Source of the DNA: Clostridia bacterium
Lineage (GTDB): Bacteria; Bacillota; Clostridia; Oscillospirales; Acutalibacteraceae
Reading direction: 5' to 3'
Assembly (NCBI GenBank): GCA_017481115.1
Contig: JAFUPP010000039.1
Span: forward strand, 1-64,000
Length of the DNA stretch: 64,000 nt
How positions within the stretch are numbered: position 1 is the stretch's first letter; each line of letters begins with the position of its first letter. The translations under genes were made by a program, and so were the position numbers. This document shows positions 4,534 through 43,233 of this stretch, one piece after another. The notes beneath the pieces were generated by a model. That model was not told the origin of the DNA and made no database searches. It saw only the letters and a program-made list of their open reading frames with translations.

Positions 4534-4770
4534 AGTATTACCTCCCAAAATTGCAAAAATAAAAGCCCCGAGAATATTTTCATATTCTCGGGACGAGTAA
4601 ACAAAATTCACCCGCGGTGCCACCCGCATTGATGCAAAAAAGCATCCTCTTTTAATATAAGATTGTGTAAAAACGGAGCGTTCCCAAACCTACTACTCAT
4701 CCCAAACGCGCTTTCAGTCGCCGACGCGTTCTCCCTGACGGACTTTCCATAAAGGCCGAGTTTCCATTAG
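4534..4770 (-). promoter_or_regulatory. T-box riboswitch leader of the aspS-gatC-gatA'-gatB operon, including an intrinsic terminator at 4563-4597
   Basis: The minus-strand sequence AATGCGGGTGGCACCGCGGGTG (4605-4626) matches the T-box consensus GGGUGGNACCGCG. It is followed by the hairpin CCCGAGAATAT-gaaa-ATATTCTCGGG and the run GCTTTTATTTTT immediately upstream of the aspS RBS. A stem-I-like GGAG...GGGAACG-CTCC segment suggests an AAC (Asn) specifier, but that call is tentative. Confidence 0.8.
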
Positions 4771-27390: not shown

Positions 27391-28770
27391 ATGAACTTAT
27401 TAGCTAAAGAACAGGGATTTTTCAAAAAAATACTTCTTATTGCTCTGCCTATTGCTTTGCAGGGTCTTATTACCACGGGTGTAAACGCTATGGACACCGT
27501 TATGGTGGGCTCCCTTGGTGAGACCGAGCTTTCGGCGGTAGGTCTTGCAAACCAGTTTATCAATATTTTCCATATTTTTTGTATGGGTATCGGTATGGGT
27601 GCCTCGGTGCTTGTGGCAAGATATTTCGGTATGAAGGATGATTCCTCCTTAAAAAAGACAATAACCATTATGCTTCGTCTGGTGCTTATTATGTCGGCTC
27701 TGTTTTGCATAGTTACCATCTGTATTCCGCGATACATAATGATGATTTACACAAACCAGACGGATTTTATAGATTTAGGTGTGGAGTATCTTAACTACTC
27801 GGTAATAACCTACTTTTTACTCGGTCTTTCCACCACCTGCACCATACTTCTTCGAAACGTAGACCAAATAAGGATACCTCTTTACACCTCTATCGGTGCA
27901 TTTTTTGTAAATATCGGAGCAAACTACCTCTTTATTTTCGGACCCTGGATATTCCCTGAAATGCGTGTTGCGGGTGCAGCTGTAGGTACGCTTATTGCCC
28001 GTATATTTGAGGTTTTGGTAATCTGCGGATATCTCTTTTTTAAGGAAAAGAAGATATGCTACCGTTTAAAAGAATTCTTTAAGCCGGTGGGTGTTTTGTG
28101 GAAGGAGTATGTGAGGATCAGTATTCCCGTACTCATAAGCGACGGCATTTTAGCGCTGGGTAACAGCTCGGTCACATCGGTAATCGGACATCTTGATGAA
28201 GGTTTTGTGGCGGCAAACTCCGTCACTACCGTAACACAGCAGTTAAGCTCGGTTATGATACAGGGCTTCTCTCAAGCGGGAAGCATCGTTACGGGTCAGA
28301 CCTTGGGACAGGGCGAGCGTGAAAAGGCACGAAAGCAGGGTTACATATTTTTAGCACTTGGATTTTTGTTCGGTCTTGTTGCGGCGGGTATCGTAACGCT
28401 TATCAGTGGCCCGATGATATCGGCTTATAATCTCACCCCCGAAACCGCAAAAATAGCCGAACAGTTAATGCTGTCCATAAGTATAATAATCGTGTTCCAG
28501 GCAACAAACTCCATTATGACAAAGGGAGTTCTTCGTGGCGGCGGTGACACCAAAATGCTGATGCTTGCCGACAACATCTTTTTGTGGATATTTGCTCTGC
28601 CGTTAGGAGTATACGCCGGATTTTTTACAAGTGCCTCACCCTTTTGGATATACCTTTTATTAAAGAGCGACCAGATATTAAAGGCGTTTTGGTGCGTAAT
28701 AAGGCTTAAGGGCGGCAAATGGATAAAACGAATCCTCACCGACGACGAACTTGAAAAGCAAAAAAAATAA
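27391..28770 (+). CDS. MATE family efflux transporter
   Basis: Twelve transmembrane helices and the N-terminal motif ILLIALPIALQGLITTGVNAMDTVMVGSLG. Confidence 0.85.
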   Translation: MNLLAKEQGFFKKILLIALPIALQGLITTGVNAMDTVMVGSLGETELSAVGLANQFINIFHIFCMGIGMGASVLVARYFGMKDDSSLKKTITIMLRLVLIMSALFCIVTICIPRYIMMIYTNQTDFIDLGVEYLNYSVITYFLLGLSTTCTILLRNVDQIRIPLYTSIGAFFVNIGANYLFIFGPWIFPEMRVAGAAVGTLIARIFEVLVICGYLFFKEKKICYRLKEFFKPVGVLWKEYVRISIPVLISDGILALGNSSVTSVIGHLDEGFVAANSVTTVTQQLSSVMIQGFSQAGSIVTGQTLGQGEREKARKQGYIFLALGFLFGLVAAGIVTLISGPMISAYNLTPETAKIAEQLMLSISIIIVFQATNSIMTKGVLRGGGDTKMLMLADNIFLWIFALPLGVYAGFFTSASPFWIYLLLKSDQILKAFWCVIRLKGGKWIKRILTDDELEKQKK

Positions 28771-28795
28771 TTAATTATATTTGTAGGAGTAAAAA

Positions 28796-29056
28796 ATGAA
28801 AAAATGTAACTGTTGTAAATCGTTAATATCCGACAACGACAAGATTTGTCCAACCTGCAGTTCACCGATTGAGACCCTGTACTGTCCTAAATGCAGGTCA
28901 ACCGATATTGACTTTACCATCAAATCTCCCGGCAAGTTTCGGCTTTTTTGGGCACGCATAAATTATTCATATTACCGTGCCGAAATATATGAGCAAAAAC
29001 ACCAAAAATTTTACTATGTTTGCAAAAACTGCGGAAAGCATTTTAAACGTAAGTAG
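28796..29056 (+). CDS. Small zinc-ribbon protein (86 aa)
   Basis: Two CxxC pairs (CPTCSS...CPKCRS) plus a C-terminal CKNCGKHF. RBS AGGAG. Confidence 0.6.
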   Translation: MKKCNCCKSLISDNDKICPTCSSPIETLYCPKCRSTDIDFTIKSPGKFRLFWARINYSYYRAEIYEQKHQKFYYVCKNCGKHFKRK

Positions 29057-29128
29057 GGGCAAACTGTGTTCGCCCGCGGGCGTTCGCAGAACGCCCCTAC
29101 ATCCCTTTCAGATGGGGTCAAGTATTAC

Positions 29129-29160
29129 GGACAGTCGGGCATGACTGTCCCTGCGTTTTC
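29129..29160 (+). terminator. Hairpin terminator after the zinc-ribbon gene
   Basis: GGACAGTC-gggcat-GACTGTCC followed by CTGCGTTTTCTC. Confidence 0.55.
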
Positions 29161-29265
29161 TCTTACATCTTCGCTACCACCTTACTTAAAAAGCAGTGAA
29201 CATTTCGGACGTTTACCAGAGATAATTTATCTAAAACAATGCTTTTCCCAATCGAATGTGTTAAA

Positions 29266-29305
29266 AACCACGGTAACGCTATCGCGTACCGTGGTTTTTT
29301 GCTTT
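29266..29305 (+). terminator. Second intrinsic terminator in the same intergenic region
   Basis: CCACGGTAACGC-tatc-GCGTACCGTGG followed by TTTTTTGCTTTTT. Confidence 0.7.
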
Positions 29306-29410
29306 TTATACCACTAAAATTTCATCTGTTTTAGATGCCTAGCAGTTTCATAACTCCAAATAAACTTGGGTGAGAAACCAATTTCTCACTATATGAACGC
29401 TTCGGTTGGT

Positions 29411-32400
29411 TTATTTTGTATAGTAGTCTTTAAGATTGTTGATTTCGGCTGAGGTCAACGTGCCGTTAAAGATAAGAAGATCATCAATGTACGCGTTGGT
29501 GGGACATGCCTTTTTGCCGTCTGCGCCTACAACGAAGGGTAGGTCGGTGTCAAAGGATATGCCCTTAAAGCCTTCATCAAGCTCGATAGAATAAACCTTT
29601 GAGAAATTATAATAGAAATTCATTAGGTTTTTCTCACGGTCGAATTCTAAAATTGTATGCACCCAGCCTGTCGGCACGTCATCGGGATAAAATACGATAT
29701 CTCCTCTTATTGTGCCGTTATAACCAACGTTAGCCTTAAAGTGATTACTGCGAAGCGACAGTACGATTCCGGAATTTAAGCCCTTAGTCCAGTCACTGTT
29801 TGCATAAATAACCGTATCGGATGTTATTTTGTTCGGCTTTATCCAGGTGGCAATAGCAAAGGAATCAGTGCCGAAGGTTACGTCGTCAAGCTGAAGCAAT
29901 GAGTTGGAATTAACACTTGCAGACTGTCCGTAATATCCTGCAATGTACTCTACGGTGCCGATTTCGGTTGCATTTGTGCCCTTAAGCGCATTTGCATTAC
30001 CGTCAAAGGTGTATGCCGCGGTCAGCTTGTTGTTATTTACGTAGCTTGTTAATTCCTTATCGGTGGTGGCTCCGAAATAATAGTTATTGTAGTAGTTTTT
30101 AAGATTTGTTATATCGGTTGCATCGGGAGCTACGTTCAGGATCATAAGATCGTCAACCGTTACCGTAATACCTGTTGGGAAGGACCAGTTGCCATTTCCG
30201 TCTGCACCTACGGTAAAGGGAAGGCCCGTATCAAAGCTCTTGCCGTCCAATGCTTCAACAAGGTCTACCGATATGATCTCTTCAAAGTTAAAGTACATCT
30301 TCATCTTACGGTTTTCGCGGTCAATGACAAATAACGAATGCGACCATCCGCCGTAAGGAATGTTTTTGTTCTTATAGTCGGCGCGGTTGGTACCGTCAGC
30401 AGCGTTAAGAGCATAGCCAAGCTTTCTGAGTGATACAAGGTAGCCGGGGTTTTTACCGCTTGCCCAGTCCTTATTTCCAAACAAGATACCCTCATTAGTG
30501 GTGCTGAAGGTTCCGTCAAGCTTATGCCACATTGAAACCGCAAAGGAATTCGAACCTACGGATATATTGGGAATGGTGATGTAATTGCCGTTTGAAACAA
30601 CCGCACCATTGCCGTAGATACCGCTGTTATAGGTTACACTGCCTACCGCCGTTCCTGTATCGGCGTTGTTTGCGGCAGTAAGATCTCCGTCAAAGTTGTA
30701 CATTGCAACTATCTTGTCGCTTGATACGAAGTTGTTAATATAACCTGCACTTCCCTGTGTAGGAGTAGCAAAGGAATCAACGTTTGATGCAGGACGTGCG
30801 GGAGGAGTAAGATTATCGGTAAAGAAATTTTGAGGAATGTATGAGTCCCAATTATCTCTGCCCTCGATGCCCAATGCATTGCAAACGGTTGCGGGGATAT
30901 CGCGAATGTAAAGTGAAAGCTCGTTGGTCTTGTTTATCGTCTTACCGGTTGCACCAAAGAAGATATACTTTTCATCATCAGTCCAACCGCCGTGTCCCTT
31001 ACCCGTACCGCCGTGATCGGTGGTTACGATAAAGAGGGTATCGTCAAGTATTCCCGCCTCTACGACCGCGTCGTATATGCGTCCTATACGTGCGTCGGTC
31101 TGCTCAATGGCATCAAGATGCGCCTGGGTGCCGTAGCCATAGGAATGACCCGCACTATCGGGAGCGTTAAACTGAACGAACATAAGCTCGGGAGAAGCGT
31201 TTTTAATGGCGTTGATTGCGCTTTGGGTAACGCCGTCCTCATCGCCCGTTCCCTTAACGACATTAATACCGTTCTCAACAATACCGATGTTGATATTATT
31301 CCAAGCCGTATATGAATGAAGCACAGCCGAAGGCATTGCCTCTCTTACAATACGGAAAATGGTAGGATATTCATCCGACATTGCATAAGGAGTATTTGCT
31401 GTTATTTCGTTTGTGAGTCCGTGAAGCGACGGAATAACACCCGTCATAAGTGAACCCCAAGACTGTGCGGAAATAGACGGATTTGCACAAATACCTGTAT
31501 AGGTTGTTGCACCGTTTGCAAAAATAGCATCAGTTTCGGGGGTATTTGCCTCCTCAAACCATGCACCTGCGCCGTCTGCTCCTAAGATTATAACGTGCTT
31601 ATAATTAAACTCCTTGTTAATAAAAATATTATCAACATAAACTTTACCCGTTGCAGAAATATCAACGGTATGCTCTCCATACTCCAAATCACTTGAGGTA
31701 TAAACTATCTGGTCAAAGTTTACGTCAATGCTGTCGTCGTAAAGATTTACCTCAACAGGCTCACCGCCATCTACCGACACGGTCATTTTTCCCTGAGATT
31801 TACTTGTATATGAGCCTATTTTAAAACCTTTGCCCGTGTATTTGAATTGCATTGTGCTGCCTCCCGTGTTTGTAAAAAGTGCCTTACGGGTCGAAAGTAA
31901 AAAGGTATTTTTTGTATTCCATTCACCTGTTAAAGTCGGTTCAAGCTCATCCGCCTCAAAGGACTCGTAGGTGACGTCGGCCTCTTCGATACTGCCAAAA
32001 CTGCCGTTGATCTTAACTGCGTCTAAGCAAGCCTTTCCGAAAACACGAATGGATGCGGTATGCTCACCGCTTTCAAGCGACTTACTGAAAATAACCGTTT
32101 TAAAATCATTATCCATTGAATCAGAATAAAGACTTACAATTTCTTCAGCCGCACCATCGATGGAAATGAACATTTTGCCCTGAGTTCTGCTCTTGTAGGA
32201 TACAAGCTCAATAATACTACCGTCAAATGCAAAATCTATCGTTCCACCGCTAACGGTAGTCATTCCGTAGCCGCCGCTTAAAAAGTAGCTCTTGCGCTCG
32301 GACCAATTATCCGAAAAAACCACCTCTTCAAGCTCTTCTGCTTCATAGGTAACGGCGGCAGTTGATGCAACCGCCGTAACCGAAAATAAAACAGAGGTTA

Positions 32401-32455
32401 GAGCAACCAAAACGACTAAAACTAATGAGACTATGGGTTTAAATCTTTTTTTCAT
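29411..32455 (-). CDS. Secreted multidomain type I phosphodiesterase / nucleotide pyrophosphatase (AlkP superfamily) with two N-terminal beta-sandwich modules and two C-terminal LamG-like domains
   Basis: Signal peptide. Two repeats (SYKSRTQGKMFISIDG and SYTSKSQGKMTVSVDG). NPP-like core (VIILGADGAGAW, SWGSLMTGVIPSLHGL, FNAPDSAGHSYGYG, VTTDHGG). Two concanavalin/LamG-like repeats (FAVSMWHK..., FAIATWIKP...). RBS GGAAGGTG. Confidence 0.8.
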   Translation of the reverse strand: MKKRFKPIVSLVLVVLVALTSVLFSVTAVASTAAVTYEAEELEEVVFSDNWSERKSYFLSGGYGMTTVSGGTIDFAFDGSIIELVSYKSRTQGKMFISIDGAAEEIVSLYSDSMDNDFKTVIFSKSLESGEHTASIRVFGKACLDAVKINGSFGSIEEADVTYESFEADELEPTLTGEWNTKNTFLLSTRKALFTNTGGSTMQFKYTGKGFKIGSYTSKSQGKMTVSVDGGEPVEVNLYDDSIDVNFDQIVYTSSDLEYGEHTVDISATGKVYVDNIFINKEFNYKHVIILGADGAGAWFEEANTPETDAIFANGATTYTGICANPSISAQSWGSLMTGVIPSLHGLTNEITANTPYAMSDEYPTIFRIVREAMPSAVLHSYTAWNNINIGIVENGINVVKGTGDEDGVTQSAINAIKNASPELMFVQFNAPDSAGHSYGYGTQAHLDAIEQTDARIGRIYDAVVEAGILDDTLFIVTTDHGGTGKGHGGWTDDEKYIFFGATGKTINKTNELSLYIRDIPATVCNALGIEGRDNWDSYIPQNFFTDNLTPPARPASNVDSFATPTQGSAGYINNFVSSDKIVAMYNFDGDLTAANNADTGTAVGSVTYNSGIYGNGAVVSNGNYITIPNISVGSNSFAVSMWHKLDGTFSTTNEGILFGNKDWASGKNPGYLVSLRKLGYALNAADGTNRADYKNKNIPYGGWSHSLFVIDRENRKMKMYFNFEEIISVDLVEALDGKSFDTGLPFTVGADGNGNWSFPTGITVTVDDLMILNVAPDATDITNLKNYYNNYYFGATTDKELTSYVNNNKLTAAYTFDGNANALKGTNATEIGTVEYIAGYYGQSASVNSNSLLQLDDVTFGTDSFAIATWIKPNKITSDTVIYANSDWTKGLNSGIVLSLRSNHFKANVGYNGTIRGDIVFYPDDVPTGWVHTILEFDREKNLMNFYYNFSKVYSIELDEGFKGISFDTDLPFVVGADGKKACPTNAYIDDLLIFNGTLTSAEINNLKDYYTK

Positions 32456-32614
32456 AATTTCACCTTCCGTTTTTACAGATAAAACATCTGCTGGTTTTAC
32501 ATCATTTTATCATATAAGTTACTTTTAAAATTACACTGTATTAGAAAAATTACTGTAGTATTTTTACATTAATGTGTATTTTTTTGCCATTTTGTAAAAA
32601 ATAACACATACAGA

Positions 32615-32642
32615 TTGACAACGAGCTTTTAAGCTATATAAT
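32615..32642 (+). promoter_or_regulatory. Promoter of the AraC-family gene
   Basis: TTGACA (32615-32620), a 16-nt spacer, and TATAAT (32637-32642). Confidence 0.6.
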
Positions 32643-32659
32643 GAGCTTGAGGTGAGATT

Positions 32660-33517
32660 ATGCAAAAATTATATCATTTTCATTTTAAGGATGAGGTTTT
32701 TTTCGGGTGTCATAAAAGCTTTAACTATGCGCTTACGGATAAGACATTGGGTCTTTACGTTCGGTTACACGACCACGATTATTATGAGATAGCGCTTTTA
32801 TCTAAGGGAAGGTGTATCCATTACGTAAACGGAACCGAATTCACTCTTTCACCCGGTACTCTTATTTTTATGCGCGACACAGATACTCACTGCTTTATGC
32901 CGATTGATAACAAAAACTACGTGCTGCATAACATTTCCTTTAACAAATCGGTTTTTGAAAAACTGCTTATATTTTTGGACGACTCGTACGAGCTTTCCCA
33001 TCTGTTCAACTCAAAGTATCCGTATAGCGTAACGCTCACGCCGATCGAAAATGAACATCTGACAAAACGAATAGAGCTGTTCTCCTGCATACCGCCGACA
33101 GAGATAAACTCCGAGGGAAAAAAGCTTTTGTTTAAGATGATAACCGATTATTTTTTGCTTAAGACAGATACTGAATTCAACTTTCAAAAGCCGCCTCCAC
33201 AGTGGTTTATAGATATGTGTACGACAATGACGCTAAAGGAAAATTATCAAAGGGGTATTTCGATTATGCCCGAAATTTCCAATAAGTCTCCAAGCTATAT
33301 TGCAAAAGCGTTTCAAACCTATATGAATACAACGCCGACCGAGTTTGTAAATCAACTGCGATTAAATTATGCCGAGCGATTATTACTTCACACCAATACC
33401 TCTATAATCGATATTTGCTATTCTGTGGGCTTTAACAACGAAAGCTGGTTTTACAAAAAATTTAAAGAGCGTCATAATATGACGCCCTTTCATTACCGTA
33501 AGCTGCACAAGGGATGA
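32660..33517 (+). CDS. AraC-family transcriptional regulator (cupin sensor plus HTH)
   Basis: C-terminal AraC HTH (NTSIIDICYSVGFNNESWFYKKFKERHNMTPFHYRK) and an N-terminal cupin-like domain. RBS GAGGTGAG. Confidence 0.85.
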   Translation: MQKLYHFHFKDEVFFGCHKSFNYALTDKTLGLYVRLHDHDYYEIALLSKGRCIHYVNGTEFTLSPGTLIFMRDTDTHCFMPIDNKNYVLHNISFNKSVFEKLLIFLDDSYELSHLFNSKYPYSVTLTPIENEHLTKRIELFSCIPPTEINSEGKKLLFKMITDYFLLKTDTEFNFQKPPPQWFIDMCTTMTLKENYQRGISIMPEISNKSPSYIAKAFQTYMNTTPTEFVNQLRLNYAERLLLHTNTSIIDICYSVGFNNESWFYKKFKERHNMTPFHYRKLHKG

Positions 33518-33555
33518 TCGGCAGGGATTATACGGGCAGCAGTACAGGTACAATA

Positions 33556-33600
33556 AAAGCGTGATGTCGAAATTCTTTCGACATCACGCTTGATTTTTAT
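33556..33600 (+). terminator. Terminator of the AraC gene
   Basis: AAGCGTGATGTCGAAA-ttc-TTTCGACATCACGCTT followed by GATTTTTAT. Confidence 0.8.
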
Positions 33601-33685
33601 GCTTTAATTGTCCGTCTCGAGTTAGTTCTCGGTCATTATGCGTTTTATCCACTTGCCGCCCTTAAGCCTTGTTCACTGCTTTTTG

Positions 33686-34615
33686 TTATTTTATTTCAAA
33701 CTGGGCGTAGATCATAAAGTGGTCGGAGTGCTGATTTGTGTCTACCGCACTTGAAACAAGCTTAAAGCCCTTATCGTACATAATGTTATCAATACACTTT
33801 GTGGGCCAACCGTCGTTGGGAATCCAGCTTGCAAGCTGATTGTTCTGATTGTTTACCTTGGAGAGTGATTTTACCTGGTCAAATTCGCTGATTGCCTCAA
33901 CATTAAAGTCGCCTGTAAGCAAACAGTTCTTTTTGCCCTTCATAAACTCCTCTACCTCTGCAAACTGCGAGGTTCTTGCCTCTGCGGTATTGTAGGTGAA
34001 GTGGGTATTGAAAAGATTTACCTTTTTACCCTGAACGGTGATCTCTACCATCTGTACCACCCTCTGCTCATAGCCGAAGGAGTTTATCTGCTTTGATGCC
34101 TCATTTGTAATGGGATACTTTGAGAGAATACCGATTCCGTATTCACCACCGATACTTGCGGGAAGATCTATTGCCTTTACAAAGGTGTAGTATTTATAGC
34201 CCGTAAGCTCCGACAGCACCTTCATAGTATCAAGATTTTGTGAGCGACCCGAAAGACGGTCTATCTCCTGAAAACCTACAATGTCAATATCCTTACTTGT
34301 GATATCGTTTGCAATAAGCTGCATATTGTGTCCGCATTTCGAACCGTTTGCGATGTTATAAGATGCGACCTTCAACATTATTCCCTCCTCTTGAGTGGGT
34401 TTACTTTCAGTTTCGGTTTCGGCGCTTACCACCGGTGTGCTTTCTACCGACGAAACGCTTTGCTCGGATGATTCCTCTGCGCTGCTCGACACGGTCTCCG
34501 TCTTGCTTGACACGGCAGATATGGTGCTTGTAACCGAAGAAACCTCCTCATCACCGCAGGCAGAAAAGCTGAACATCAGCATAAACATTAAAACTAATGC
34601 AATTGCTCTTTTCAT
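33686..34615 (-). CDS. Secreted lipoprotein of the endonuclease/exonuclease/phosphatase (EEP) family
   Basis: Signal peptide with lipobox (FSFSAC|G), a Ser/Glu/Thr-rich linker, and an EEP domain (ASYNIANG...VGFQE...TGDFN...SDH). RBS AGGAGGG. Confidence 0.8.
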   Translation of the reverse strand: MKRAIALVLMFMLMFSFSACGDEEVSSVTSTISAVSSKTETVSSSAEESSEQSVSSVESTPVVSAETETESKPTQEEGIMLKVASYNIANGSKCGHNMQLIANDITSKDIDIVGFQEIDRLSGRSQNLDTMKVLSELTGYKYYTFVKAIDLPASIGGEYGIGILSKYPITNEASKQINSFGYEQRVVQMVEITVQGKKVNLFNTHFTYNTAEARTSQFAEVEEFMKGKKNCLLTGDFNVEAISEFDQVKSLSKVNNQNNQLASWIPNDGWPTKCIDNIMYDKGFKLVSSAVDTNQHSDHFMIYAQFEIK

Positions 34616-34689
34616 AATATACCCTCCTGATTTATCTACACTAATTTTACCATTATAATAAAAAAAGTCAATCCACTATTTACCTAATA

Positions 34690-34723
34690 TTAAGAAAAGC
34701 CCTACGGAAAATTCCGTAGGGCT
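34690..34723 (-). terminator. Terminator of the 1417-aa gene
   Basis: GCCCTACGGAA-aatt-CCGTAGGGC followed by TTTTCTT on the minus strand. Confidence 0.7.
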
Positions 34724-34753
34724 TGAATTGATTCAGATTGATTTAATTAAGAT

Positions 34754-37700
34754 TTAATTAAATGCAAACTCTGCATAGAGCATATAGTGGTCTGAATGCT
34801 GAGGATTGGGAGCATACATACCGTCGCTGATAAGCTCAAGGTCATCTGTATAAAGAATGTGGTCGATATAGTCGGTGGCCCAGTTATCAGTGTTGATGTA
34901 TGAATGATACTTGCTATCGTTTACGAGATTAAGACCTACTGCCTTGATTTCGCTTACTGCCTCGATGTTTGTATCACCGGTAACAATAACATTTGAAAGA
35001 CCGCTAACATAGTTCTTGATCTCATTGATCTGGGTTGTTCTGATATTAACATTCTCCCATGAAAGATGTGTATTAAGGAAGTTGACTGTTGTTCCCTCAA
35101 CATCGATCTTTACGTGCTGGAGAGCTCTCTGCTCAACGCCTGTTGAGGTGAGAAGCTGATATGTGGTTTCGGTAATGGGATACTTTGAAAGGATACCGAT
35201 ACCATATTCACCGCTGTTGCCGCTTGAGCCTGGGATGTTTATGGTCTTGGTATAGTATGCATACTTATAACCTGTGAACTCCTTAAGCTTTGCCATTGTA
35301 TCCTGAAGCTGTGAACGGGTTGCGTTTTTATCGACCTCCTGGAGACCTACGATGTCGATGTTGTGGTTAACGATATCGTTTGCGATGGTCTGGAAGTTGT
35401 GTGAAACGTCTCTGCCGTTTGCAATGTTGTAGGTTGCTACACGAATGTTGGGTCTGTTGGGCTTAAGAACGATGGCGTCGATATTTGCCTTTGCATTTGC
35501 AACAAGGCGAACGGTGTGCTTACCGTTACTAAGATCGGATACGCTGAATACTGTCTTCTGGTAGTCCTGATCGATAGTATTGGAACGGAGGTTAAATACG
35601 TTAATCTCAACATTGTCAACATAAACGACTACACGGCCGTATGTGGTTGACTTGTAAGCGATAACATCAAAACCTGCACCCTCGAATGAGAACTCAACCG
35701 ACTCACCGCGGTCAAGCATAACTGCTTCGTGGCCCGAAAGCTTCCAAGCGTATCTTACATCGTTATCTACAACATTGTTGTTAATATCCTTGGAGATACA
35801 AAGGTTTTCTGCCTCAAGAGCTACGCCGTAATCAACTGTGATGTTGATTATACCCTTGATGCCGTTCATATTGTAGGTGATAACGTCGGCAAGTGCGCCT
35901 GCCTCGTACTTAATTACGTTGCCTTCTACGGTAACCTTTCCGTTCTCTGCAGAAGCGGTAAGACCTGTCTTATCAAGTCCGTTAATGAATGTGTTTTCAA
36001 TCTTGAAGGAAGCGGTGTTCTTGGTGAGGGTCTTGTCGATAGGATCAAAACCTGCCCCTCTTTCTGCGATGTCAAATATCTCACCTGCTAACTCAATGCC
36101 GTCGAGAGCATTGTAGAAGAGGGTGGGACGTGCAGCATTTGCGTTCTTGGTTTTTGCAGTAACGATATCAACAGAATGGAATCCGTCTTCAAGAACTGCA
36201 CCGAAGATGTGCTTCTGGTATGCGGGTTCAGCGCTGTAAAGGTCGATGATACCATATGACTTTCCGTCGATGATAACCTCGATCTGACCGTAGGTGTTTG
36301 AGGTGTATGCATTGATAGCAAAAGCTGTTCCGTCGAATGCAAATGCATAGCTGTCACCGGCGTCGGTGGATCTCATTGCAGTGCCGTTTACGGGACCCTT
36401 GACGTTCTGAAGGCTCTGCCAGTTACCCTTGTAGATAACACATGCATCGTCTGCATCGACATAGGTCATTTCGCCAATGCCTGCCTTATAGCTTTCGTTG
36501 AAGGGGAATACTGCATTACCTGCAATCTTTACGGTTCCATCGGTAACGGTCTGAGTCCAGGTACCCTCAAGGTATGCGGTCTCTGAGCCTGTACCGGTGA
36601 ATAATACTGCATCGTCAGCTGCAACAAATACACCCTTGTTTGCGGGATAAATATTTGCACCTGAAATTGAGAAATTGTATCTTGTGTTGGTGTCAACAAC
36701 CTTAATGTTTGCACCGTTAAGGGTTACAACGCTCTTTGCGGGGGTGGTTACCTTCTGACCGTTGAGGTCGATGGTGATGTCTTTTGTAATGTTGATGCTC
36801 TTATCAACCGATGTTGCCCAGTTAACCTTAACTGTTGCACCTGCGGGAGCAAACTCAATAGCCTTGAGAAGATCGTTGCCGCCGTGCTCACCGTTGATGT
36901 AGGTATCCATACCGTAACCAACTGCGTTTACGAGAACAACGGAGCCTGTAAACTTACCAAAACGGATTCTGAAATCTCTTACGTTTTCATAATCCATAAA
37001 CATATTGCCTGCACCTGAGGTCTGGCTATCGTGTGACCAGTTGGTAGCAATACCGTTTACTACTAAGGAGTTTGCACCTGCACCTGTAGTACCGGGATCG
37101 AGAGGAATGAATATCTTGTTCCATCCGGCTTTAACGCCCTGATCAATAAAGAACTGATCGTAGAAGATCATTCTGATACCGTTCTTACCGGTTGAACCAA
37201 CGCTTGATGTGAACTCTACAAAGAACTCAACAACATTTGTTGCTGCATCTGCCTTCATATTGGTGATGCAGTTTGCCTCGAAGTAGATATACATTTCAAG
37301 GAACTCTTCACCGTAAAGGTTAAGAGGAGTGCTTGCTACGTGGTAGGAAACTGCGGTACCTGCTGCGGTGTGCTGTACGGAGGATGCACCGATAACTGCG
37401 TTGTCGCCGTTACGGTTACCTGCGATAACTGCCGACTCACCTGAATAGGTGGTGTGATATGCAGACTGACCGAGGGTCTCCTTGTAGTAAACCTCATACT
37501 TATAGTTATTTGAGTTGTAAGTGATGGTGACAAACTGTCTGCCCGGAAGGGTTGTATCGATAGCCGAAACTGTGTAGTTTGCGGGATCAACAACTGCACC
37601 CTTATCGGTTACGATAAAGTCTGCTGCTGCGGTCTGCTCGCCGCGCTTATAAACAGTCTTCTTGCCCTCGATGTTTACATCCCAATTCGACTCGCCTGCT

Positions 37701-39007
37701 ACTGTTGAAAGCTCAACTGCTGCTACTGCGATGTCGCAAAGTGATGTGTTGTGGCTGTAGAATGCAATGTAATGGATGGTCTGGTCATTGGCAAAGCCCT
37801 GGAATGCCTGACCGTTGTAAGCATTTGATGTGCCCTTGATGCTTGCAGTGAAGTTTACACTAATGTAGTTCCAGCCTGCAGTAAGGGTGCCTACGCCCTT
37901 GTTACAAAGGTGATACTCGATATAGTTATCACAGGGAGTAGTTGTTGATGATGTATTGTCTCGTCTTTCGAACATACGGAATATGATGGATGCATCGGAG
38001 GGATCGTCGACCCAAAGCCATGCGTTAACATAAAGCTCTCCGCCCATGAAATCATCATAAAGATTTGACATCTTAATACCGTCTTCGCCGCCGACCTTGA
38101 TCATAGCACCGGTCTTTGCGACTGCGGAAATCTGATCAACATAGTATGCCTTGGTTGCGGGAACACCTTCGGTGCCGCCGGTGAGGGTAGCGGTATCAAC
38201 AACGCTGAAATCCTCTGCAGCAGAGGTACCGATCTGGTACATCTCGTCTGTGGTCTTGTCTGATGCGGGATCAACAAGAAGGATCTTCTCCTCGGGTTCG
38301 GGCTCGGGAATGGGAAGGTCTGCAACCATTGCTGCGCCTACCGAACCTACACGGGTGTTACCGGTGTGGCAGTTTACGATATCGCTTGATGCCTTTGTCT
38401 TGGCAGGATCGATAACATTATAGGTGTTTGTTCCGTCGGTAATGGTGAAGGAGGAAATACCGATGTTGACCGAGCCATATACTGCGGTACCTGCGGTTGA
38501 GTTCTCGTGAACTGTCATAGCAGAAAGTGTGCCGTTCTCTACGAGTGCTGCGTGTGCGGGCTGGTTGTAGTTTGCGTTACCTGCTGAACCCTGTGTGAAG
38601 GCTGAAAGCTTTAATGAAACCTTGTTCCATCCTTCGTTAAGGTTGCCTGTTTTATACTCCTTACGGATTGCCCACTTTTCTGAATAGTTGCTTGCTACGG
38701 TTGCATCAAAATGTCCTGCGGGGAAAAGTGATACAAGGAAGTCATACTGAGGCTCTACATTTGCCTTTACTCTGCCGATGTAGATCCAGATCTCTGCGGT
38801 GTACTTTGAAAGATCCGATCCGTCAATGGTAAAATCGGTAAAGTCATATGCAAAACCGCTCTTTCTTACGTCTGATGCATCTGAATAGTATACATATGCA
38901 TCATCGGAAGGATTAACATCCTCTGCGGATGATGCGACAATACCGCTGATCGCTACTGTTGAGACGATCATAAGAACTGCTAAAAGAATACTTAATACTT
39001 TTTTCAT
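34754..39007 (-). CDS. Giant secreted or surface protein (1417 aa) with a C-terminal EEP domain
   Basis: Signal peptide. The N-terminal roughly 1180 aa are paralogous to the product of 39288..42833. Internal YKS..G..V.IDG-type modules are shared with the NPP protein. The C-terminal 235 aa form an EEP domain (VATYNIANG...VGLQEVD...GDTN...SDH) that resembles the product of 33686..34615. RBS AAAGGA. Confidence 0.85.
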   Translation of the reverse strand: MKKVLSILLAVLMIVSTVAISGIVASSAEDVNPSDDAYVYYSDASDVRKSGFAYDFTDFTIDGSDLSKYTAEIWIYIGRVKANVEPQYDFLVSLFPAGHFDATVASNYSEKWAIRKEYKTGNLNEGWNKVSLKLSAFTQGSAGNANYNQPAHAALVENGTLSAMTVHENSTAGTAVYGSVNIGISSFTITDGTNTYNVIDPAKTKASSDIVNCHTGNTRVGSVGAAMVADLPIPEPEPEEKILLVDPASDKTTDEMYQIGTSAAEDFSVVDTATLTGGTEGVPATKAYYVDQISAVAKTGAMIKVGGEDGIKMSNLYDDFMGGELYVNAWLWVDDPSDASIIFRMFERRDNTSSTTTPCDNYIEYHLCNKGVGTLTAGWNYISVNFTASIKGTSNAYNGQAFQGFANDQTIHYIAFYSHNTSLCDIAVAAVELSTVAGESNWDVNIEGKKTVYKRGEQTAAADFIVTDKGAVVDPANYTVSAIDTTLPGRQFVTITYNSNNYKYEVYYKETLGQSAYHTTYSGESAVIAGNRNGDNAVIGASSVQHTAAGTAVSYHVASTPLNLYGEEFLEMYIYFEANCITNMKADAATNVVEFFVEFTSSVGSTGKNGIRMIFYDQFFIDQGVKAGWNKIFIPLDPGTTGAGANSLVVNGIATNWSHDSQTSGAGNMFMDYENVRDFRIRFGKFTGSVVLVNAVGYGMDTYINGEHGGNDLLKAIEFAPAGATVKVNWATSVDKSINITKDITIDLNGQKVTTPAKSVVTLNGANIKVVDTNTRYNFSISGANIYPANKGVFVAADDAVLFTGTGSETAYLEGTWTQTVTDGTVKIAGNAVFPFNESYKAGIGEMTYVDADDACVIYKGNWQSLQNVKGPVNGTAMRSTDAGDSYAFAFDGTAFAINAYTSNTYGQIEVIIDGKSYGIIDLYSAEPAYQKHIFGAVLEDGFHSVDIVTAKTKNANAARPTLFYNALDGIELAGEIFDIAERGAGFDPIDKTLTKNTASFKIENTFINGLDKTGLTASAENGKVTVEGNVIKYEAGALADVITYNMNGIKGIINITVDYGVALEAENLCISKDINNNVVDNDVRYAWKLSGHEAVMLDRGESVEFSFEGAGFDVIAYKSTTYGRVVVYVDNVEINVFNLRSNTIDQDYQKTVFSVSDLSNGKHTVRLVANAKANIDAIVLKPNRPNIRVATYNIANGRDVSHNFQTIANDIVNHNIDIVGLQEVDKNATRSQLQDTMAKLKEFTGYKYAYYTKTINIPGSSGNSGEYGIGILSKYPITETTYQLLTSTGVEQRALQHVKIDVEGTTVNFLNTHLSWENVNIRTTQINEIKNYVSGLSNVIVTGDTNIEAVSEIKAVGLNLVNDSKYHSYINTDNWATDYIDHILYTDDLELISDGMYAPNPQHSDHYMLYAEFAFN

Positions 39008-39229
39008 AATTCTTGTCCTTTCAATTTTTTGTCATCACATTTTGTCTTGCCTTCAAACATAGGTGTTCTGCCCCACCTATATGCGTTTAACGGTAAAACA
39101 TTTTAGACATAATTATCATAACATATCGCATCTCTTTTGTATAGCGTTTTGAAAAGTTTTTCGTTTTGGTAAAGTCTACTTTTAGTTCCCTTTAAAGCCT
39201 TATGCTAACTTAAAATTCTATCAGGATAA

Positions 39230-39263
39230 CAAAAAAGACCCTACGGTAGAAACCGTAGGGTCT
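39230..39263 (-). terminator. Terminator of the 1181-aa gene
   Basis: GACCCTACGGT-agaa-ACCGTAGGGTC followed by TTTTTT on the minus strand. It shares the CCCTACGG core with the terminator at 34690-34723. Confidence 0.75.
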
Positions 39264-39287
39264 AAATTAAACCGTTATAAGCTTAAA

Positions 39288-42200
39288 TTACTTAAGAACG
39301 ATAGCGTCAACGTTACCCTTGCCGATAGCAACGATCTGAACGAGATGCTCTTTATCCTCAAGTGTATCACTTGTGAATACGCTCTTCTGGAAGTCTTCAT
39401 CGATGGTGGAAGAAGTAAGGTTGAATACGCCTACCTCTGTGCCGTCAATGTAAACTGCCATACGCTTATAGCTGGATGACTTATAGGAGATAACCTCGAA
39501 GCCTGTGCCCTCGAAGGTGAACTCAACATACTCGCCGGGATCGAGAACGATTGCTTCGTGGCCCGAAAGTTTCCAAGCATATCTTACATCGTTAGCGATG
39601 GGGTTGTTGTTGATGTCCTTAGAGATACAAATGTTCTCTGCCTCAAGCTTAACGCCATCTGCAAGAGTGATGTTGATAACACCCTTGATACCGTTCATAT
39701 AGTAGGTGATGACGTCGGTCTGAGCGCCTGCCTCATACTTAATTACGTTGCCGCTGACAGTAACTTCACCGTTTACTGCAGAAGCGGTAAGACCGGTAAG
39801 CTCTGCTCCTTCAATGAATGCATTTTCGATTACGAAGCTAGCGGTGTTCTTTGTAAGGGTCTTGTTCATATCAATGAAGTTGTAATCACTAAGATCCTTA
39901 AGCTCACCGACAACCGAAACGGTATCGATTGCGTTGTAGAAGAGAGTGGGACGCTGTGCAGCGGAGTTCTTTGTGCCAAGAGTCTTAACCTGTACAGTGT
40001 GATATCCGTCCTTAACAACGGCACCGAAGATGTGCTGCTGATAGGTCTGCTCTGCGCTGTAAAGATCAAGAGTGCCGTAGCTTATGCCGTCAACAAATAC
40101 CTCTACCTGACCGTAGGTGGGTGAAGTATATGCGTTGAGTGCGAATGCAGTACCGCTGAATGCGAATACATAGCTGTCGCCTGCATCGGTTGATCTCATA
40201 GCATCGTTGTTTACGGGACCCTTTACATTCTTGATGGTCTGCCAGTTGCCTGTGTAGAGAACTGATGCATCAAATATGTCGGTGTCGGTCATTTCGTCAA
40301 TGCCTGCCTTATAGCTGTCATTGAAGGGGAATGATGCGTTACCTGCGATCTTTGCAGTACCGTCGGTAACTGTCTGAGTCCAGCTGCCCTCAATGTAAGC
40401 GGTCTCTGAACCTGTACCCGAGAATACAACTGCACTGCTCTTTGCTGAGAAGTAGCCCTTGTTTGCGGGATAAAAATTTGCACCTGAGAGTGAGTAGTTG
40501 TATCTTACGTTAGTGTCGATAACGGTGATATCGCCGCCGTTAAGCTCAACTATCTTACCTGCAGTAGTGGTAATCTTCTGACCGTTGAGGTCAAGAGTAA
40601 TATTCTTTGTAACCTTGATGCTGTCTGCGATGGACTGCTTCCAGTTAACCTTAACTGTTGCGCCTTCGGGAGCAAGCTCAACTGCCTTGATAAGGTCGTT
40701 ACCGCCGTGTTCGCCGTTGATATAGGTATCCATACCGTAACCAACTGCATTGATGAGTGCGACTGAGCCTGAGAACTTATCAAAACGGATTCTGAAGTTT
40801 CTTACGTTCTCGTAATCCATATACATTTTGCCGCCTGAGGTCTGGCTGTCGTGCTGCCAGTTGGTCTGAACGCCGCCGATTGCGGGTGAATCAGCCTGGT
40901 TACCGTAGGTGCCGGGATTAAGAGGAATGTATATCTTGTTCCAACCTGCAACACAGCCCTGGTTGATGAAGAAGGTATCGGTAAGAAGGATTCTTACACC
41001 GTTATAGCCTGCACCTGAAGCGTTTGAGGTAGGCTCAACAAGAAGTCTGATGACATCTGTTGCTGCATCTGCCTTCATATTGGTGATACAGTTTGCCTCG
41101 AAGTAGATATACATTTCAAGGAACTCTTCGCCGTAAAGGTTAAGAGGAGTGCTTGCTACGTGGTAGGATACTGCAGTACCTGTTGCGGTATGCTGTACGG
41201 AGGATGCACCGATAACTGCGTTGTCGCCGTTACGGTTACCTGCGATAACACTTGACTCACCTGAATAGGTGGTGTGGTATACAGACTGACCAAGGGTATC
41301 CTTGTAGTAGATCTCATACTTATACTCTTTTGAGTCGTAGGTGATGGTGACAAACTGTCTGCCTGCCTTTTCGGTGTTGATAGCAGATACAGTGTAGTTT
41401 GCGGGATCAACAACTGCGCCCTTATCGGTTACGATAAAGTCTGCTGCTGCGGTCTGCTCGCCGCGTCTGTAAACCATCTTCTTGCCTTCGATGTTTACAT
41501 CCCAATCTGACTCGCCGTCAACTGTTGAAAGCTCAACTGCTGCTACTGCGATATCTGAAAGTGATGTGTTGTGGCTGTAGAATGAAATGTAACGAATTAC
41601 GTTCTCAGCTGCAAAGCCCTGGAATGCCTGGCCGTGATAACCGTTAGCGCCGCCCTTGACAACTGCAGTGATGTTCTGTGAAATGTAGTTCCAACCTGCA
41701 GTAAGAGTACCTACGCCGTTGTTGTTAAGGCAGGTTTCAATGTAGTTGTCTGCACTGGAAGTTGCTGAATTTCTGTTGTCGTATCTTTCGAACATACGGA
41801 AGATAATGTTTGCGGTATCGGGATCGTCGATCCAAACCCAAGCATTAACATAGATCTCGCCGCCCATAAAGTCGTCATAGAGGTTTGCGATCTTAATACC
41901 GTCATCTCCGCCAACCTTGATCATAGCCCCTGACTTTGCAACTGCATTTAACTGATCAATATAGTAGGCTGTGGATGAAGGAACTCCCTCGGTGCCGCCT
42001 GTAAGGGTAGCGGTATCAACAACGCTGAAATCCTCTGAGGTGTTAACATTGATCTGAAGCATATCGTCAACACTCTTGTCTGCTGCGGGGTCGATAAGGG
42101 TGATTCTCTCGTCGTAGCTCTCTACGGGAACGGGAATGGGAAGGTCTGCAACCATTGCTGCGCCTACTGCACCTGCACGTGTGTTACCGGTGTGGCTGTT

Positions 42201-42833
42201 TACGATATCGCTTGATGCCTTTGTCTTGGCAGGATCGATAACATTATAGGTATTTGTTCCGTCGGTAATGGTGAAGGATGAAATACCGATGTTGACCGAG
42301 CCGTATACTGCGGTACCTGCGGTTGAGTTCTCGTGAACTGTCATAGCGGTAAGTGTACCGTCTGCTACAAGTGCTGCGTGTGCGGGCTGGTTGTATGCTG
42401 TGTTACCGCCTGAACCCTGTATGAAGTCAGAAAGCTTTACTACCTGCTTATTCCAACCAACATTAAGTTCGCCTGTTTTATACTCCTTACGGATTGCCCA
42501 CTTTTCTGTATAGTTGCTTCCTACGGTTGCATCAAAATGTCCTGCGGGATAAAGTGATACGAGGAAGTCATACTGCGGGTTTACTGCAGCATTGGGCTGA
42601 CCGATGTAGATCCACATCTCTGCGGTGTACTTTGAGAGATCTGATCCGTCAATGGTGAAATCGGTAAAGTCATATGCAAAACCGCTCTTTCTTGCGTCTG
42701 ATGCATCTGAATAGTATACATATGCATCATCGGAAGGATTGGTATCTGCTGCTGATGATGTGACAATACCGCTGATCGCTACTGTTGAAACGATCATAAG
42801 AACTGCTAAAAGAATGCTTAAATACTTTTTCAT
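39288..42833 (-). CDS. Giant secreted or surface protein (1181 aa), a tandem paralog of 34754..39007 that lacks the EEP domain
   Basis: Signal peptide. Long stretches of nucleotide identity with the downstream copy, for example 41078-41340 versus 37238-37500 with roughly 25 mismatches in 263 nt. It ends (...AIVLK*) exactly where the EEP domain starts in the paralog. RBS AAAGGAAAAG. Confidence 0.85.
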   Translation of the reverse strand: MKKYLSILLAVLMIVSTVAISGIVTSSAADTNPSDDAYVYYSDASDARKSGFAYDFTDFTIDGSDLSKYTAEMWIYIGQPNAAVNPQYDFLVSLYPAGHFDATVGSNYTEKWAIRKEYKTGELNVGWNKQVVKLSDFIQGSGGNTAYNQPAHAALVADGTLTAMTVHENSTAGTAVYGSVNIGISSFTITDGTNTYNVIDPAKTKASSDIVNSHTGNTRAGAVGAAMVADLPIPVPVESYDERITLIDPAADKSVDDMLQINVNTSEDFSVVDTATLTGGTEGVPSSTAYYIDQLNAVAKSGAMIKVGGDDGIKIANLYDDFMGGEIYVNAWVWIDDPDTANIIFRMFERYDNRNSATSSADNYIETCLNNNGVGTLTAGWNYISQNITAVVKGGANGYHGQAFQGFAAENVIRYISFYSHNTSLSDIAVAAVELSTVDGESDWDVNIEGKKMVYRRGEQTAAADFIVTDKGAVVDPANYTVSAINTEKAGRQFVTITYDSKEYKYEIYYKDTLGQSVYHTTYSGESSVIAGNRNGDNAVIGASSVQHTATGTAVSYHVASTPLNLYGEEFLEMYIYFEANCITNMKADAATDVIRLLVEPTSNASGAGYNGVRILLTDTFFINQGCVAGWNKIYIPLNPGTYGNQADSPAIGGVQTNWQHDSQTSGGKMYMDYENVRNFRIRFDKFSGSVALINAVGYGMDTYINGEHGGNDLIKAVELAPEGATVKVNWKQSIADSIKVTKNITLDLNGQKITTTAGKIVELNGGDITVIDTNVRYNYSLSGANFYPANKGYFSAKSSAVVFSGTGSETAYIEGSWTQTVTDGTAKIAGNASFPFNDSYKAGIDEMTDTDIFDASVLYTGNWQTIKNVKGPVNNDAMRSTDAGDSYVFAFSGTAFALNAYTSPTYGQVEVFVDGISYGTLDLYSAEQTYQQHIFGAVVKDGYHTVQVKTLGTKNSAAQRPTLFYNAIDTVSVVGELKDLSDYNFIDMNKTLTKNTASFVIENAFIEGAELTGLTASAVNGEVTVSGNVIKYEAGAQTDVITYYMNGIKGVINITLADGVKLEAENICISKDINNNPIANDVRYAWKLSGHEAIVLDPGEYVEFTFEGTGFEVISYKSSSYKRMAVYIDGTEVGVFNLTSSTIDEDFQKSVFTSDTLEDKEHLVQIVAIGKGNVDAIVLK

Positions 42834-43233
42834 TGTTCTTTTCCTTTCGTTGATTATATTTATGACTTAGCCGCTTCCTCCCACCGCTTTCTTACGCTGT
42901 GTGCTCTGCCCCACACAGAAAGGTCAATAACCTGAAATACCCGCAACCTGAATTACGTGCATTTCAGGCTGCTGACCAAATGTAAGAAAGCGAAGAAAGT
43001 TTGCTGCTTAGCCTTCAAAAGGGTAGAATACCCCTTTGTACTTATAATAAATTATAACAATAATTTATATCTGTGTCAATTGATTTTTTTCGGTTAGTTT
43101 TGAACAGAAGTCTACATTTTCTTCCAGTTTTAAAACAAGCTATAAATTGCTACAACATATTGATATTTACAGATTGAATTTTTTTATTTTTGCAGTTATA
43201 ATTGCATCAAACAACACAAAAAAGAGGTGCTTT

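Follow-up and report, generated by a model that had tools for sequence, protein, structure and literature searches.

Our analysis of a 64,000-nucleotide stretch of metagenome-assembled DNA from a 'Clostridia bacterium' (GCA_017481115.1, contig JAFUPP010000039.1, positions 1 to 64,000; the window) suggests that an exported NPP-like phosphoesterase and exported EEP-fold enzymes, encoded together at positions 29411-42833, probably strip phosphate from complex carbohydrates rather than scavenging DNA. The locus is a mosaic in which four genes for exported proteins of this uncultured gut or rumen bacterium are transcribed separately. It comprises five open reading frames (ORFs), placed as a sequence-only reading of the same DNA had placed them: a phosphoesterase with LamG domains, an AraC-family regulator, an EEP lipoprotein, and two giant modular proteins, one of which ends in an EEP domain. 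That reading had described exported enzymes of two phosphoesterase superfamilies near an AraC gene, and the ORFs, the Pfam domains and the predicted export signals all bear this out. Pfam scores were compared with gathering cut-offs (23 bits for Phosphodiest), and export signals (Sec-type leaders and a lipobox) were read by eye from the sequence; on this basis the NPP protein and both giants, of 1417 and 1181 aa, carry putative Sec-type leaders. The EEP and NPP-like hydrolases are exported, judged by these signals, and probably active.

The phosphoesterase gene (29411-32455, minus strand; ORF and Pfam) encodes 1014 aa arranged as a predicted signal peptide, two CE2_N-like modules, a catalytic domain and two LamG domains. 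Its Pfam scores (Phosphodiest, PF01663, 68.9 bits; Laminin_G_3, 90.9 bits over two stretches; CE2_N, 30.3 bits) uphold the earlier assignment to an NPP/AlkP-type enzyme with LamG domains. All four parts lie on the minus strand: the two CE2_N-like jelly-roll modules (about residues 36-283; 31607-32350), which were located by Pfam and can be aligned to the four such modules in the giants; the NPP-like catalytic domain (about residues 285-550; 30806-31603), delimited by conserved columns, an AlphaFold2 (AF2) model and Foldseek; the first LamG domain (about residues 582-790; 30086-30712), delimited by homolog coverage, an AF2 beta-sandwich and Foldseek; and the second LamG domain (residues 851-1006; 29438-29905), which holds the best Laminin_G_3 stretch and matches PDB 5hon (E 8e-7). 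Most homologs cover 50% of the query, and by this measure the catalytic domain plus first LamG domain, about 510 aa, is the conserved core of an NPP-LamG family. The AF2 model of the catalytic and LamG region has a mean predicted local distance difference test score (pLDDT) of 89.0. Its catalytic domain finds Xac NPP, ENPP7 and ENPP5 as top Foldseek matches (E ~3e-13; target-normalised TM 0.52-0.57), and its LamG part finds domain 4 of AbnA and the Hc-N lectin-like domains of neurotoxins. Sequence profiles concur with Foldseek in naming Xac NPP, ENPP7, ENPP5 and ENPP4; ENPP7 is the best match by PDB sequence profile (E 1.8e-11) and the second by Foldseek.

The NPP-LamG family appears to differ from the known NPPs in its nucleophile. 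The predicted metal ligands are D294, D433/H437, D480/H481 and H488 (residue number = alignment position + 274), and their columns align with the motifs of ENPP7 and Xac NPP; all of these but H437 are invariant across 44 homologs of the core, and H437 is the majority residue at its position. Ser329 is likewise invariant in the 44 homologs, within the motif P-S-I-S-A-Q-x-W, and a HMMER alignment places it on the nucleophile Thr of ENPP7, so that the Thr typical of the NPP branch is replaced by Ser at the aligned position. Ser329 is therefore the predicted nucleophile, and the family is, by this alignment and the invariant metal ligands, a putative NPP-like metalloenzyme that uses Ser. A Ser nucleophile occurs in other branches of the superfamily, namely alkaline phosphatase and iPGM. 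The window enzyme thus shares with the known NPPs (Xanthomonas NPP, 2GSN/7N1S; ENPP7; ENPP5; ENPP4) the alkaline-phosphatase-superfamily core and the two-metal site, but it is only 13-15% identical to them, its catalytic domain is about 110 residues shorter, and that domain is always followed by LamG.

The second enzyme, described earlier as an EEP lipoprotein, proved to be one by its domain and lipobox. Its gene (33686-34615, minus strand) encodes 309 aa with a predicted lipobox, FSFSA|C (MKRAIALVLMFMLMFSFSA|C), an acidic Ser/Glu-rich linker, and an EEP domain at residues 78-309 (33689-34384) that scores 68.1 bits against Exo_endo_phos (PF03372); the lipobox Cys column is kept in nearly all homologs that retain the N-terminus. 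Across 36 aligned EEP sequences, the two window copies among them, N87, E117, H205, D236, N238, D276, D298 and H299 never vary; the catalytic residues had been named in advance as a test, and all eight are intact in each copy. Profile match, fold (AF2 model, mean pLDDT 87.8) and a complete complement of catalytic residues (Asn, Glu, His, Asp, Asn, Asp, Asp-His) place the domain within the EEP superfamily. Domain charge was tried as an indicator of nuclease activity and did not discriminate, both EEP domains being acidic (isoelectric points 4.9 and 5.8). Tandem EEP-EEP proteins occur among the homologs elsewhere (P0006, P0009), and the relatives of the EEP family, like those of the NPP-LamG family, include fusions to BACON domains.

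A PDB search with the single EEP sequence returned no match, and a profile search placed the uncharacterised structures 3TEB and 4RUW first, then nocturnin, beta-hemolysin, TDP2 and BT3783; APE1 and ExoIII ranked later and spanned only the N-terminal half of the domain. Foldseek ranked BT3783 (3MPR/4C1R) first, and BT3783, TDP2 and the sphingomyelinases came above the folds of DNase I and ExoIII type. Among functionally characterised structures, BT3783 lies nearest to the EEP domain in these model-based comparisons, DNase I and ExoIII-type nucleases being more distant, and the fold evidence leans away from a nuclease of the latter types. BT3783 is an EEP-family phosphatase of a yeast-mannan locus of B. 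thetaiotaomicron, assayed on phosphorylated sugars and high-mannose glycans, and 3MPR is its apo structure (PMC4978465). The EEP sugar phosphatases of the yeast alpha-mannan loci, BT3783 and BT2630 (PDB 3MPR, 4C1R), share with the window EEP domains the fold and a Mg site, and with the window lipoprotein an exported, lipoprotein-type form; they act on phosphorylated glycans beside glycoside hydrolases (GHs), a context matched by the Bacteroidales relatives of the window enzymes (PMC4978465). The window EEPs differ from them in that they are only 21-25% identical, belong to a Gram-positive host, lie outside any polysaccharide utilization locus (PUL) and have no adjoining GH; one of them, moreover, is fused to a modular protein of 1180 aa.

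That fused domain belongs to the larger of the two giants (34754-39007, minus strand; ORF and Pfam), whose 1417 aa comprise a predicted leader, about 800 residues without a Pfam match, a Big_3 domain, two CE2_N-like modules (36113-36493 and 35456-35827, minus strand; Pfam CE2_N) and a C-terminal EEP domain (34757-35452, minus strand; Exo_endo_phos, 63.6 bits at residues 1191-1407). It had been described as a surface protein with a terminal EEP domain: the terminal domain is there, and the surface label finds no backing in Pfam, which detects no LPXTG, SLH or dockerin in either giant or in the NPP protein; the CE2_N-like modules, a candidate substitute for such anchors, are its one, indirect support. 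Streptococci are known to have large wall-anchored proteins in which binding domains precede a C-terminal EEP nuclease (SpnA, SsnA, SWAN); compared with these as they are generally described, the 1417-aa giant lacks the LPXTG anchor and the OB folds and has CE2_N-like modules instead. The fourth protein, reported earlier as a giant paralog, is indeed one: its gene (39288-42833, minus strand; ORF and Pfam) encodes 1181 aa, 74% identical across 1181 residues to the 1417-aa giant, and Pfam finds only CE2_N and Big_3 in it. The paralog ends exactly at the EEP junction (...AIVLK* against ...AIVLKPNRPNIRV... in the 1417-aa giant), and the terminators behind the two giants are homologous; a giant-EEP-terminator unit was therefore duplicated in tandem, and the upstream copy later lost its EEP domain. 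At a ratio of nonsynonymous to synonymous divergence (dN/dS) of 0.29 between the two giants, the EEP-less copy appears to be kept by purifying selection.

The N-terminal 800 or so residues of the giants are nearly orphan, with partial matches only in P0157, P0197, P0214 and P0238 among 1.84 billion representatives. A word-indexed search for relatives returned the giant itself plus two marginal matches, and genome and metagenome contig scans (with single proteins, and for the metagenomes also with an alignment) returned none. A full HMMER scan with the 1181-aa giant reached 2057 proteins, nearly all of which match just the CE2_N-like module of about 120 aa. The module is often multi-copy in proteins of the representative library, and the NPP protein and both giants carry two copies each. 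Its partner domains in 40 proteins (SpoIID in 6, NlpC/P60 in 5, cohesin in 4, Amidase_3 in 3, YkuD in 1, plus proteases) are, judged by domain content, those expected of a Gram-positive cell-wall-binding repeat of autolysins and surface proteins, and in uncultured Clostridia the module may serve as such a repeat without having been recognised as one. A PDB search with the module profile gave nothing below E 0.2, and a literature search on CE2_N/PF17996 found no relevant characterisation. Two further features of the giants were observed: residues 1-800 hold three regions of about 200 aa with a recurring (A/E)GWN(K/Y) motif; and the 5' untranslated regions (UTRs) carry short hairpins (39059-39080 and 42897-42918, minus strand) with a conserved loop GGGCAGAR and stems that vary compensatorily (GGTG/CACC against TGTG/CACA), in two examples only and with no Rfam match.

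The sequence-only reading had proposed one inducible system under one regulator, and the layout of transcription signals speaks against it: every gene of the block has its own promoter-like site and a strong terminator, and the block, as read from these signals, is not a single regulated unit. A bidirectional intrinsic terminator with a 16-bp perfect stem (33557-33591) separates the araC and EEP lipoprotein genes; the 1417-aa gene has an intrinsic terminator with a 12-bp stem followed by a T run (34697-34724, minus strand), and the 1181-aa gene has its homologous counterpart (39236-39263, minus strand) and a perfect extended sigma-70-like promoter (43051-43079, minus strand; TTGACA-17-TGnTATAAT) that would give a 5' UTR of about 215 nt. 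Rfam at the gathering threshold found no riboswitch or leader RNA in the whole window.

The regulator gene (32660-33517, plus strand) encodes 285 aa with a cupin ligand-binding domain and a helix-turn-helix (HTH) domain (AraC_binding 48.8 bits, HTH_18 71.5 bits by Pfam). The protein resembles ChbR, RhaS and the AraC proteins of gut-Clostridia loci in its cupin sensor, its double HTH and its orientation divergent from the target; unlike true ChbR and RhaS, it falls below every equivalog cut-off (best NCBIfam match ChbR, 98 bits against 264; RhaS, 77 against 288). Between it and the NPP gene lies a divergent control region (32456-32659; promoter scan) with almost the same sequence in the one close relative; this region contains a perfect sigma-70-like promoter for araC (32615-32642, plus strand) and a direct repeat, ACAGT(G)TAATTTT x2 (32530-32558, minus strand), which is a candidate AraC operator. 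The araC gene is paired in position with the NPP gene only, and so the local AraC control proposed earlier stands for the NPP gene and falls for the EEP genes, which have a separate history from the cassette described below. An operator shared with the EEP lipoprotein gene was considered and rejected: a 13-nt word of the control region recurs with one mismatch in the lipoprotein promoter (34636-34648), but the window contains 4 such matches where 2.4 are expected, and as many arise in 19 of 100 shuffles, which is not significant.

The sole close relative found, GCA_054298255.1 (L001), carries the locus at the same place, beside MatE, DUF1846 and threonyl-tRNA synthetase (ThrRS) genes, and comparison with it separates three layers of divergence. 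The flanks are about 91% identical at the nucleotide level; the NPP-araC segment (29226-33670; 4.4 kb) is 95.5% identical and inverted relative to the flanks; and the giant and EEP part is merely 65-76% identical. Synonymous divergence (dS) follows the same order: 0.07 for the NPP and AraC genes, about five times below the flanking housekeeping genes (0.32-0.43 for MatE and DUF1846), and 0.9-3.3 for the giant and EEP genes. The NPP protein is 96% identical in amino acids to its ortholog. A 63-nt inverted repeat brackets the inverted segment, its left arm being the 3' end of the MatE gene (28701-28763; placed by the blastn breakpoints), 79% complementary to the right arm, which is a relic of that same 3' end (33608-33670; blastn and repeat search). 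The identity layers, the inversion, the repeats and the low dS together therefore mark NPP-araC as an apparently discrete, recently exchanged, invertible cassette, and this pattern suggests recent exchange of the cassette between lineages. At dN/dS of 0.02-0.38 in all gene pairs, all of the genes appear to be under purifying selection. The EEP domains have moved as well: L001 has three, one fused to its giant and two in separate lipoproteins of 306 and 333 aa; its fused domain (L001 1-4195) resembles the free lipoprotein of the window, and its 306-aa lipoprotein resembles the EEP domain fused to the window's 1417-aa giant. By these resemblances, EEP domains have changed places between fused and free-standing proteins.

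The NPP+LamG core is widespread: when species-representative genomes were scanned for its pattern, at least 451 loci were confirmed. Among the loci listed, all 80 of 80 come from metagenome-derived assemblies, mostly of animal guts and rumen, and the carriers belong to Oscillospiraceae, other Clostridia, Bacteroidales, Thermoguttaceae (Planctomycetes) and Bacilli. A weak match to dockerin was seen in a single NPP-LamG relative. The core is strongly expanded in certain genomes. As a separate observation, a Ruminococcaceae metagenome-assembled genome carries seven NPP-family paralogs in tandem, six of them with a LamG domain (L009 6432-18347; also L010). Our neighbour census covered, for each NPP-LamG gene, the first two ORFs to its left and to its right. 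In Clostridia (33 loci) it found DeoR regulators at 7 loci, further NPP/LamG paralogs at 5-6, low-molecular-weight phosphatases at 4, AraC at 2, and scattered glycoside hydrolases; GH38, GH20, GH2, GH42, GH43 and a sugar-binding protein gene are among the neighbours there. In Bacteroidales (24 loci) it found hybrid two-component regulators at 6-8, EEP in 4 of 82 neighbour ORFs, and GH2, GH39, GH63-like, trehalase-like and TonB-dependent receptor genes. Divergent pairs of a cupin-AraC gene and an NPP-LamG gene also occur at L008 and L011, where the window-type layout stands beside GH2 and other NPP-LamG genes.

EEP genes adjoin NPP-LamG genes in three phyla, with differing EEP architectures. 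L038 has a co-directional series of M26N-like, EEP-like (625 aa), NPP-LamG, GH28, EEP lipoprotein and GH39 genes; L068 has GH39, GH2 and NPP-LamG genes, a convergent gene for a DUF6259+EEP protein of 986 aa, and a BACON protein; L065 and L069 have plain NPP, DUF6528+EEP and NPP-LamG genes in a row; and L063, from Thermoguttaceae, has an EEP gene of the window's own subfamily (profile E 1e-50) divergent from NPP-LamG, with a Metallophos+LamG gene next to it. The grouping of EEP and NPP-LamG exceeds chance in one respect, namely this recurrence in unrelated phyla, and because the pairing recurs in Bacteroidales and Planctomycetes loci, the earlier view that the two superfamilies work together appears to be right. 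As an observation in its own right, L063 (4640-9737) brings three phosphoesterase superfamilies together (EEP, NPP-LamG and Metallophos-LamG), two of them with LamG.

We propose that surface-retained enzymes remove phosphate monoesters or phosphodiester-linked groups from glycopolymers, with the NPP gene controlled by a sugar-like inducer, and we put the probability of this proposal at roughly 0.4. It is drawn from the PUL-like and GH-rich contexts of the relatives, the NPP-LamG/EEP adjacency, the BT3783 fold and the carbohydrate-type accessory modules. The EEP lipoprotein would be held at the cell surface by its lipid anchor, and the NPP protein and both giants probably by their CE2_N-like modules, which elsewhere accompany peptidoglycan hydrolases. 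Together the enzymes would strip phosphate monoesters or phosphodiester-linked substituents from complex glycopolymers, the candidate substrates being polysaccharides that bear phosphate or are bridged by phosphodiesters (for example teichoic-acid-like polymers, phosphomannan-type glycans or capsules); the evidence is compatible with a teichoic-acid or other phosphodiester-polymer substrate. Removal of the phosphate would let glycoside hydrolases proceed. AraC would probably activate the NPP gene only, upon binding a sugar-like ligand, the EEP and giant genes would be driven by their own strong promoters, and the EEP-less paralog would probably be a non-catalytic binding or scaffold protein.

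Several points weigh against this proposal. The block itself holds zero glycoside hydrolases and zero transporters, and neither subfamily has any member of demonstrated substrate; a literature search on NPP+LamG in PULs and on EEP or teichoic-acid phosphodiesterases found no relevant characterisation. The structural likeness of the EEP domain extends to a broad clade that includes TDP2, CCR4-type RNases and sphingomyelinases, and the uncharacterised structures 4RUW and 3G6S match it as well as or better than BT3783. The census used crude ORF calling without a genome-wide background, so its neighbour enrichments are estimates rather than statistics. Most NPP-LamG loci lack an adjoining EEP gene; in Clostridia, homologs of the EEP lipoprotein are usually solitary (L002-L005, L014, L015), and no conserved neighbours of that family were found there. 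Orthology of the L008 and L011 regulators with the window AraC was considered and rejected, their identity to it (21-30%) being the same as to an unrelated AraC protein, and the shared layout is thus a generic arrangement of one regulator and one enzyme in these genomes. The wall-binding role of the CE2_N-like module has co-occurrence as its sole basis. The commonest neighbouring regulator in Clostridia is DeoR (7/33 loci); regulators of this type typically respond to sugar phosphates, deoxyribose-5-P and glycerol-3-P among them, and so these neighbours fit nucleoside or glycerophosphodiester routes as well. The grouping at L063 is also the classical series of endonuclease, phosphodiesterase and nucleotidase.

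A wider form of the glycopolymer proposal, which we offer tentatively and regard as rather doubtful, is that NPP-LamG and EEP constitute a conserved, uncharacterised two-enzyme module of Clostridia, Bacteroidales and Planctomycetes from gut and rumen, accompanied by a CE2_N-like wall-binding repeat of uncultured Clostridia. The module would take phosphate or phosphodiester-linked substituents off complex glycans and so supply a dephosphorylation step for which present models of gut glycan breakdown largely have no place.

The sequence-only reading had placed its emphasis on extracellular DNA, phosphate and nucleoside scavenging, and degradation of nucleic acids is the alternative that survives best, unlikely as we judge it: the EEP proteins would be surface DNases or RNases, the NPP would trim oligonucleotides to 5'-mononucleotides, and other enzymes would free nucleosides and phosphate to be taken up, or else extracellular DNA in biofilms would be remodelled. 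Both superfamilies include well-known secreted nucleases and phosphodiesterases, streptococcal surface proteins of the SpnA/SsnA kind carry C-terminal EEP nucleases, the EEP catalytic residues of the window copies are intact, and the DeoR neighbours and the three-enzyme grouping at L063 lend themselves to this account. The EEP domains do match the NCBIfam models for the MnuA membrane nuclease and xth, but at 18.7-23.7 bits, far under the cut-offs of 185 and 99; DNase I and ExoIII-type folds rank under BT3783, TDP2 and the sphingomyelinases, the profile matches to APE1 and ExoIII cover half a domain, and the acidity of the EEP domains is a further, weak argument. The 64-kb window contains no phosphate (Pst), nucleoside or sugar transporter and no 5'-nucleotidase. 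Pho boxes were tried as a sign of phosphate control and rejected, with 64 matches (at most 2 mismatches) against 55.6 expected, and the promoters of the block contain no exact tandem pair of TT(A/T/C)ACA at 11-bp spacing, the consensus being that of Bacillus subtilis, which may not transfer to this host. The Bacteroidales relatives, finally, lie within GH operons with glycan-sensing regulators, so that the scavenging emphasis loses ground on gene content, fold and context alike.

It could also be that there is no ensemble, the genes being neighbours by an accident of recombination in a variable region and the cassette and the EEP/giant genes acting on unrelated substrates; to this we give little credence. 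The three evolutionary layers (dS 0.07, 0.3-0.4 and 0.9-3.3), the inverted and repeat-bracketed cassette, the independent transcription units, the mostly solitary EEP lipoprotein homologs and the many NPP-LamG loci without an adjoining EEP gene are what such an accident would leave. Against it stand the adjacency of EEP and NPP-LamG across three phyla with varied EEP architectures, the CE2_N-like module common to the NPP protein and both giants, and L001, which keeps the adjacency despite rearrangement. Hydrolysis of lipid head groups, with an EEP resembling sphingomyelinase or phospholipase C and an NPP resembling the alkaline sphingomyelinase ENPP7 acting on host or dietary phospholipids and sphingolipids, is very improbable: ENPP7 is the leading profile match of the NPP domain, beta-hemolysin and sphingomyelinase C match the EEP profile (E 2e-12 to 6e-10), and GHL6 and GH123-like genes lie near L011, but the identities are only 13-24%, the ENPP7 score is inseparable from those of Xac NPP and ENPP5, no lipid-related neighbours recur, and the modules that accompany the enzymes (LamG, CE2_N-like, BACON) belong to carbohydrate-binding types.

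The flanks of the block are of a housekeeping kind (ThrRS, DUF1846, MatE, U32 peptidases, alanine racemase and a 2-oxoacid dehydrogenase complex), and a GH2 gene lies 3.7 kb from it. A 462-bp segment between the MatE and NPP genes (28764-29225) has no counterpart in L001 and contains a small ORF (28797-29056, plus strand) for a Cys-rich, zinc-ribbon-like product. Elsewhere in the window, an aspartyl-tRNA synthetase ORF (2458-4629, minus strand) has a C-terminal GatC domain (Pfam, residues 647-717) and looks like a fusion of a synthetase with an amidotransferase subunit, and a bacterial serpin gene is found at 8111-9358 (plus strand; Pfam Serpin, E 3e-79).

Both phosphoesterase superfamilies are well known; the NPP+LamG family with a predicted Ser nucleophile, and its pairing with EEP, are uncharacterised. 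The locus illustrates how such gene sets may be assembled, by cassette exchange and inversion, tandem duplication, loss of a catalytic domain and shuffling of EEP domains. If the enzymes proved to be nucleases and phosphodiesterases instead, they would be a principal means by which these communities turn over nucleic acids. If they act on phosphorylated glycopolymers, as we favour, they would add a new accessory activity to those that break down carbohydrates in rumen and hindgut, and this would explain the phosphoesterase genes found inside glycoside-hydrolase operons.

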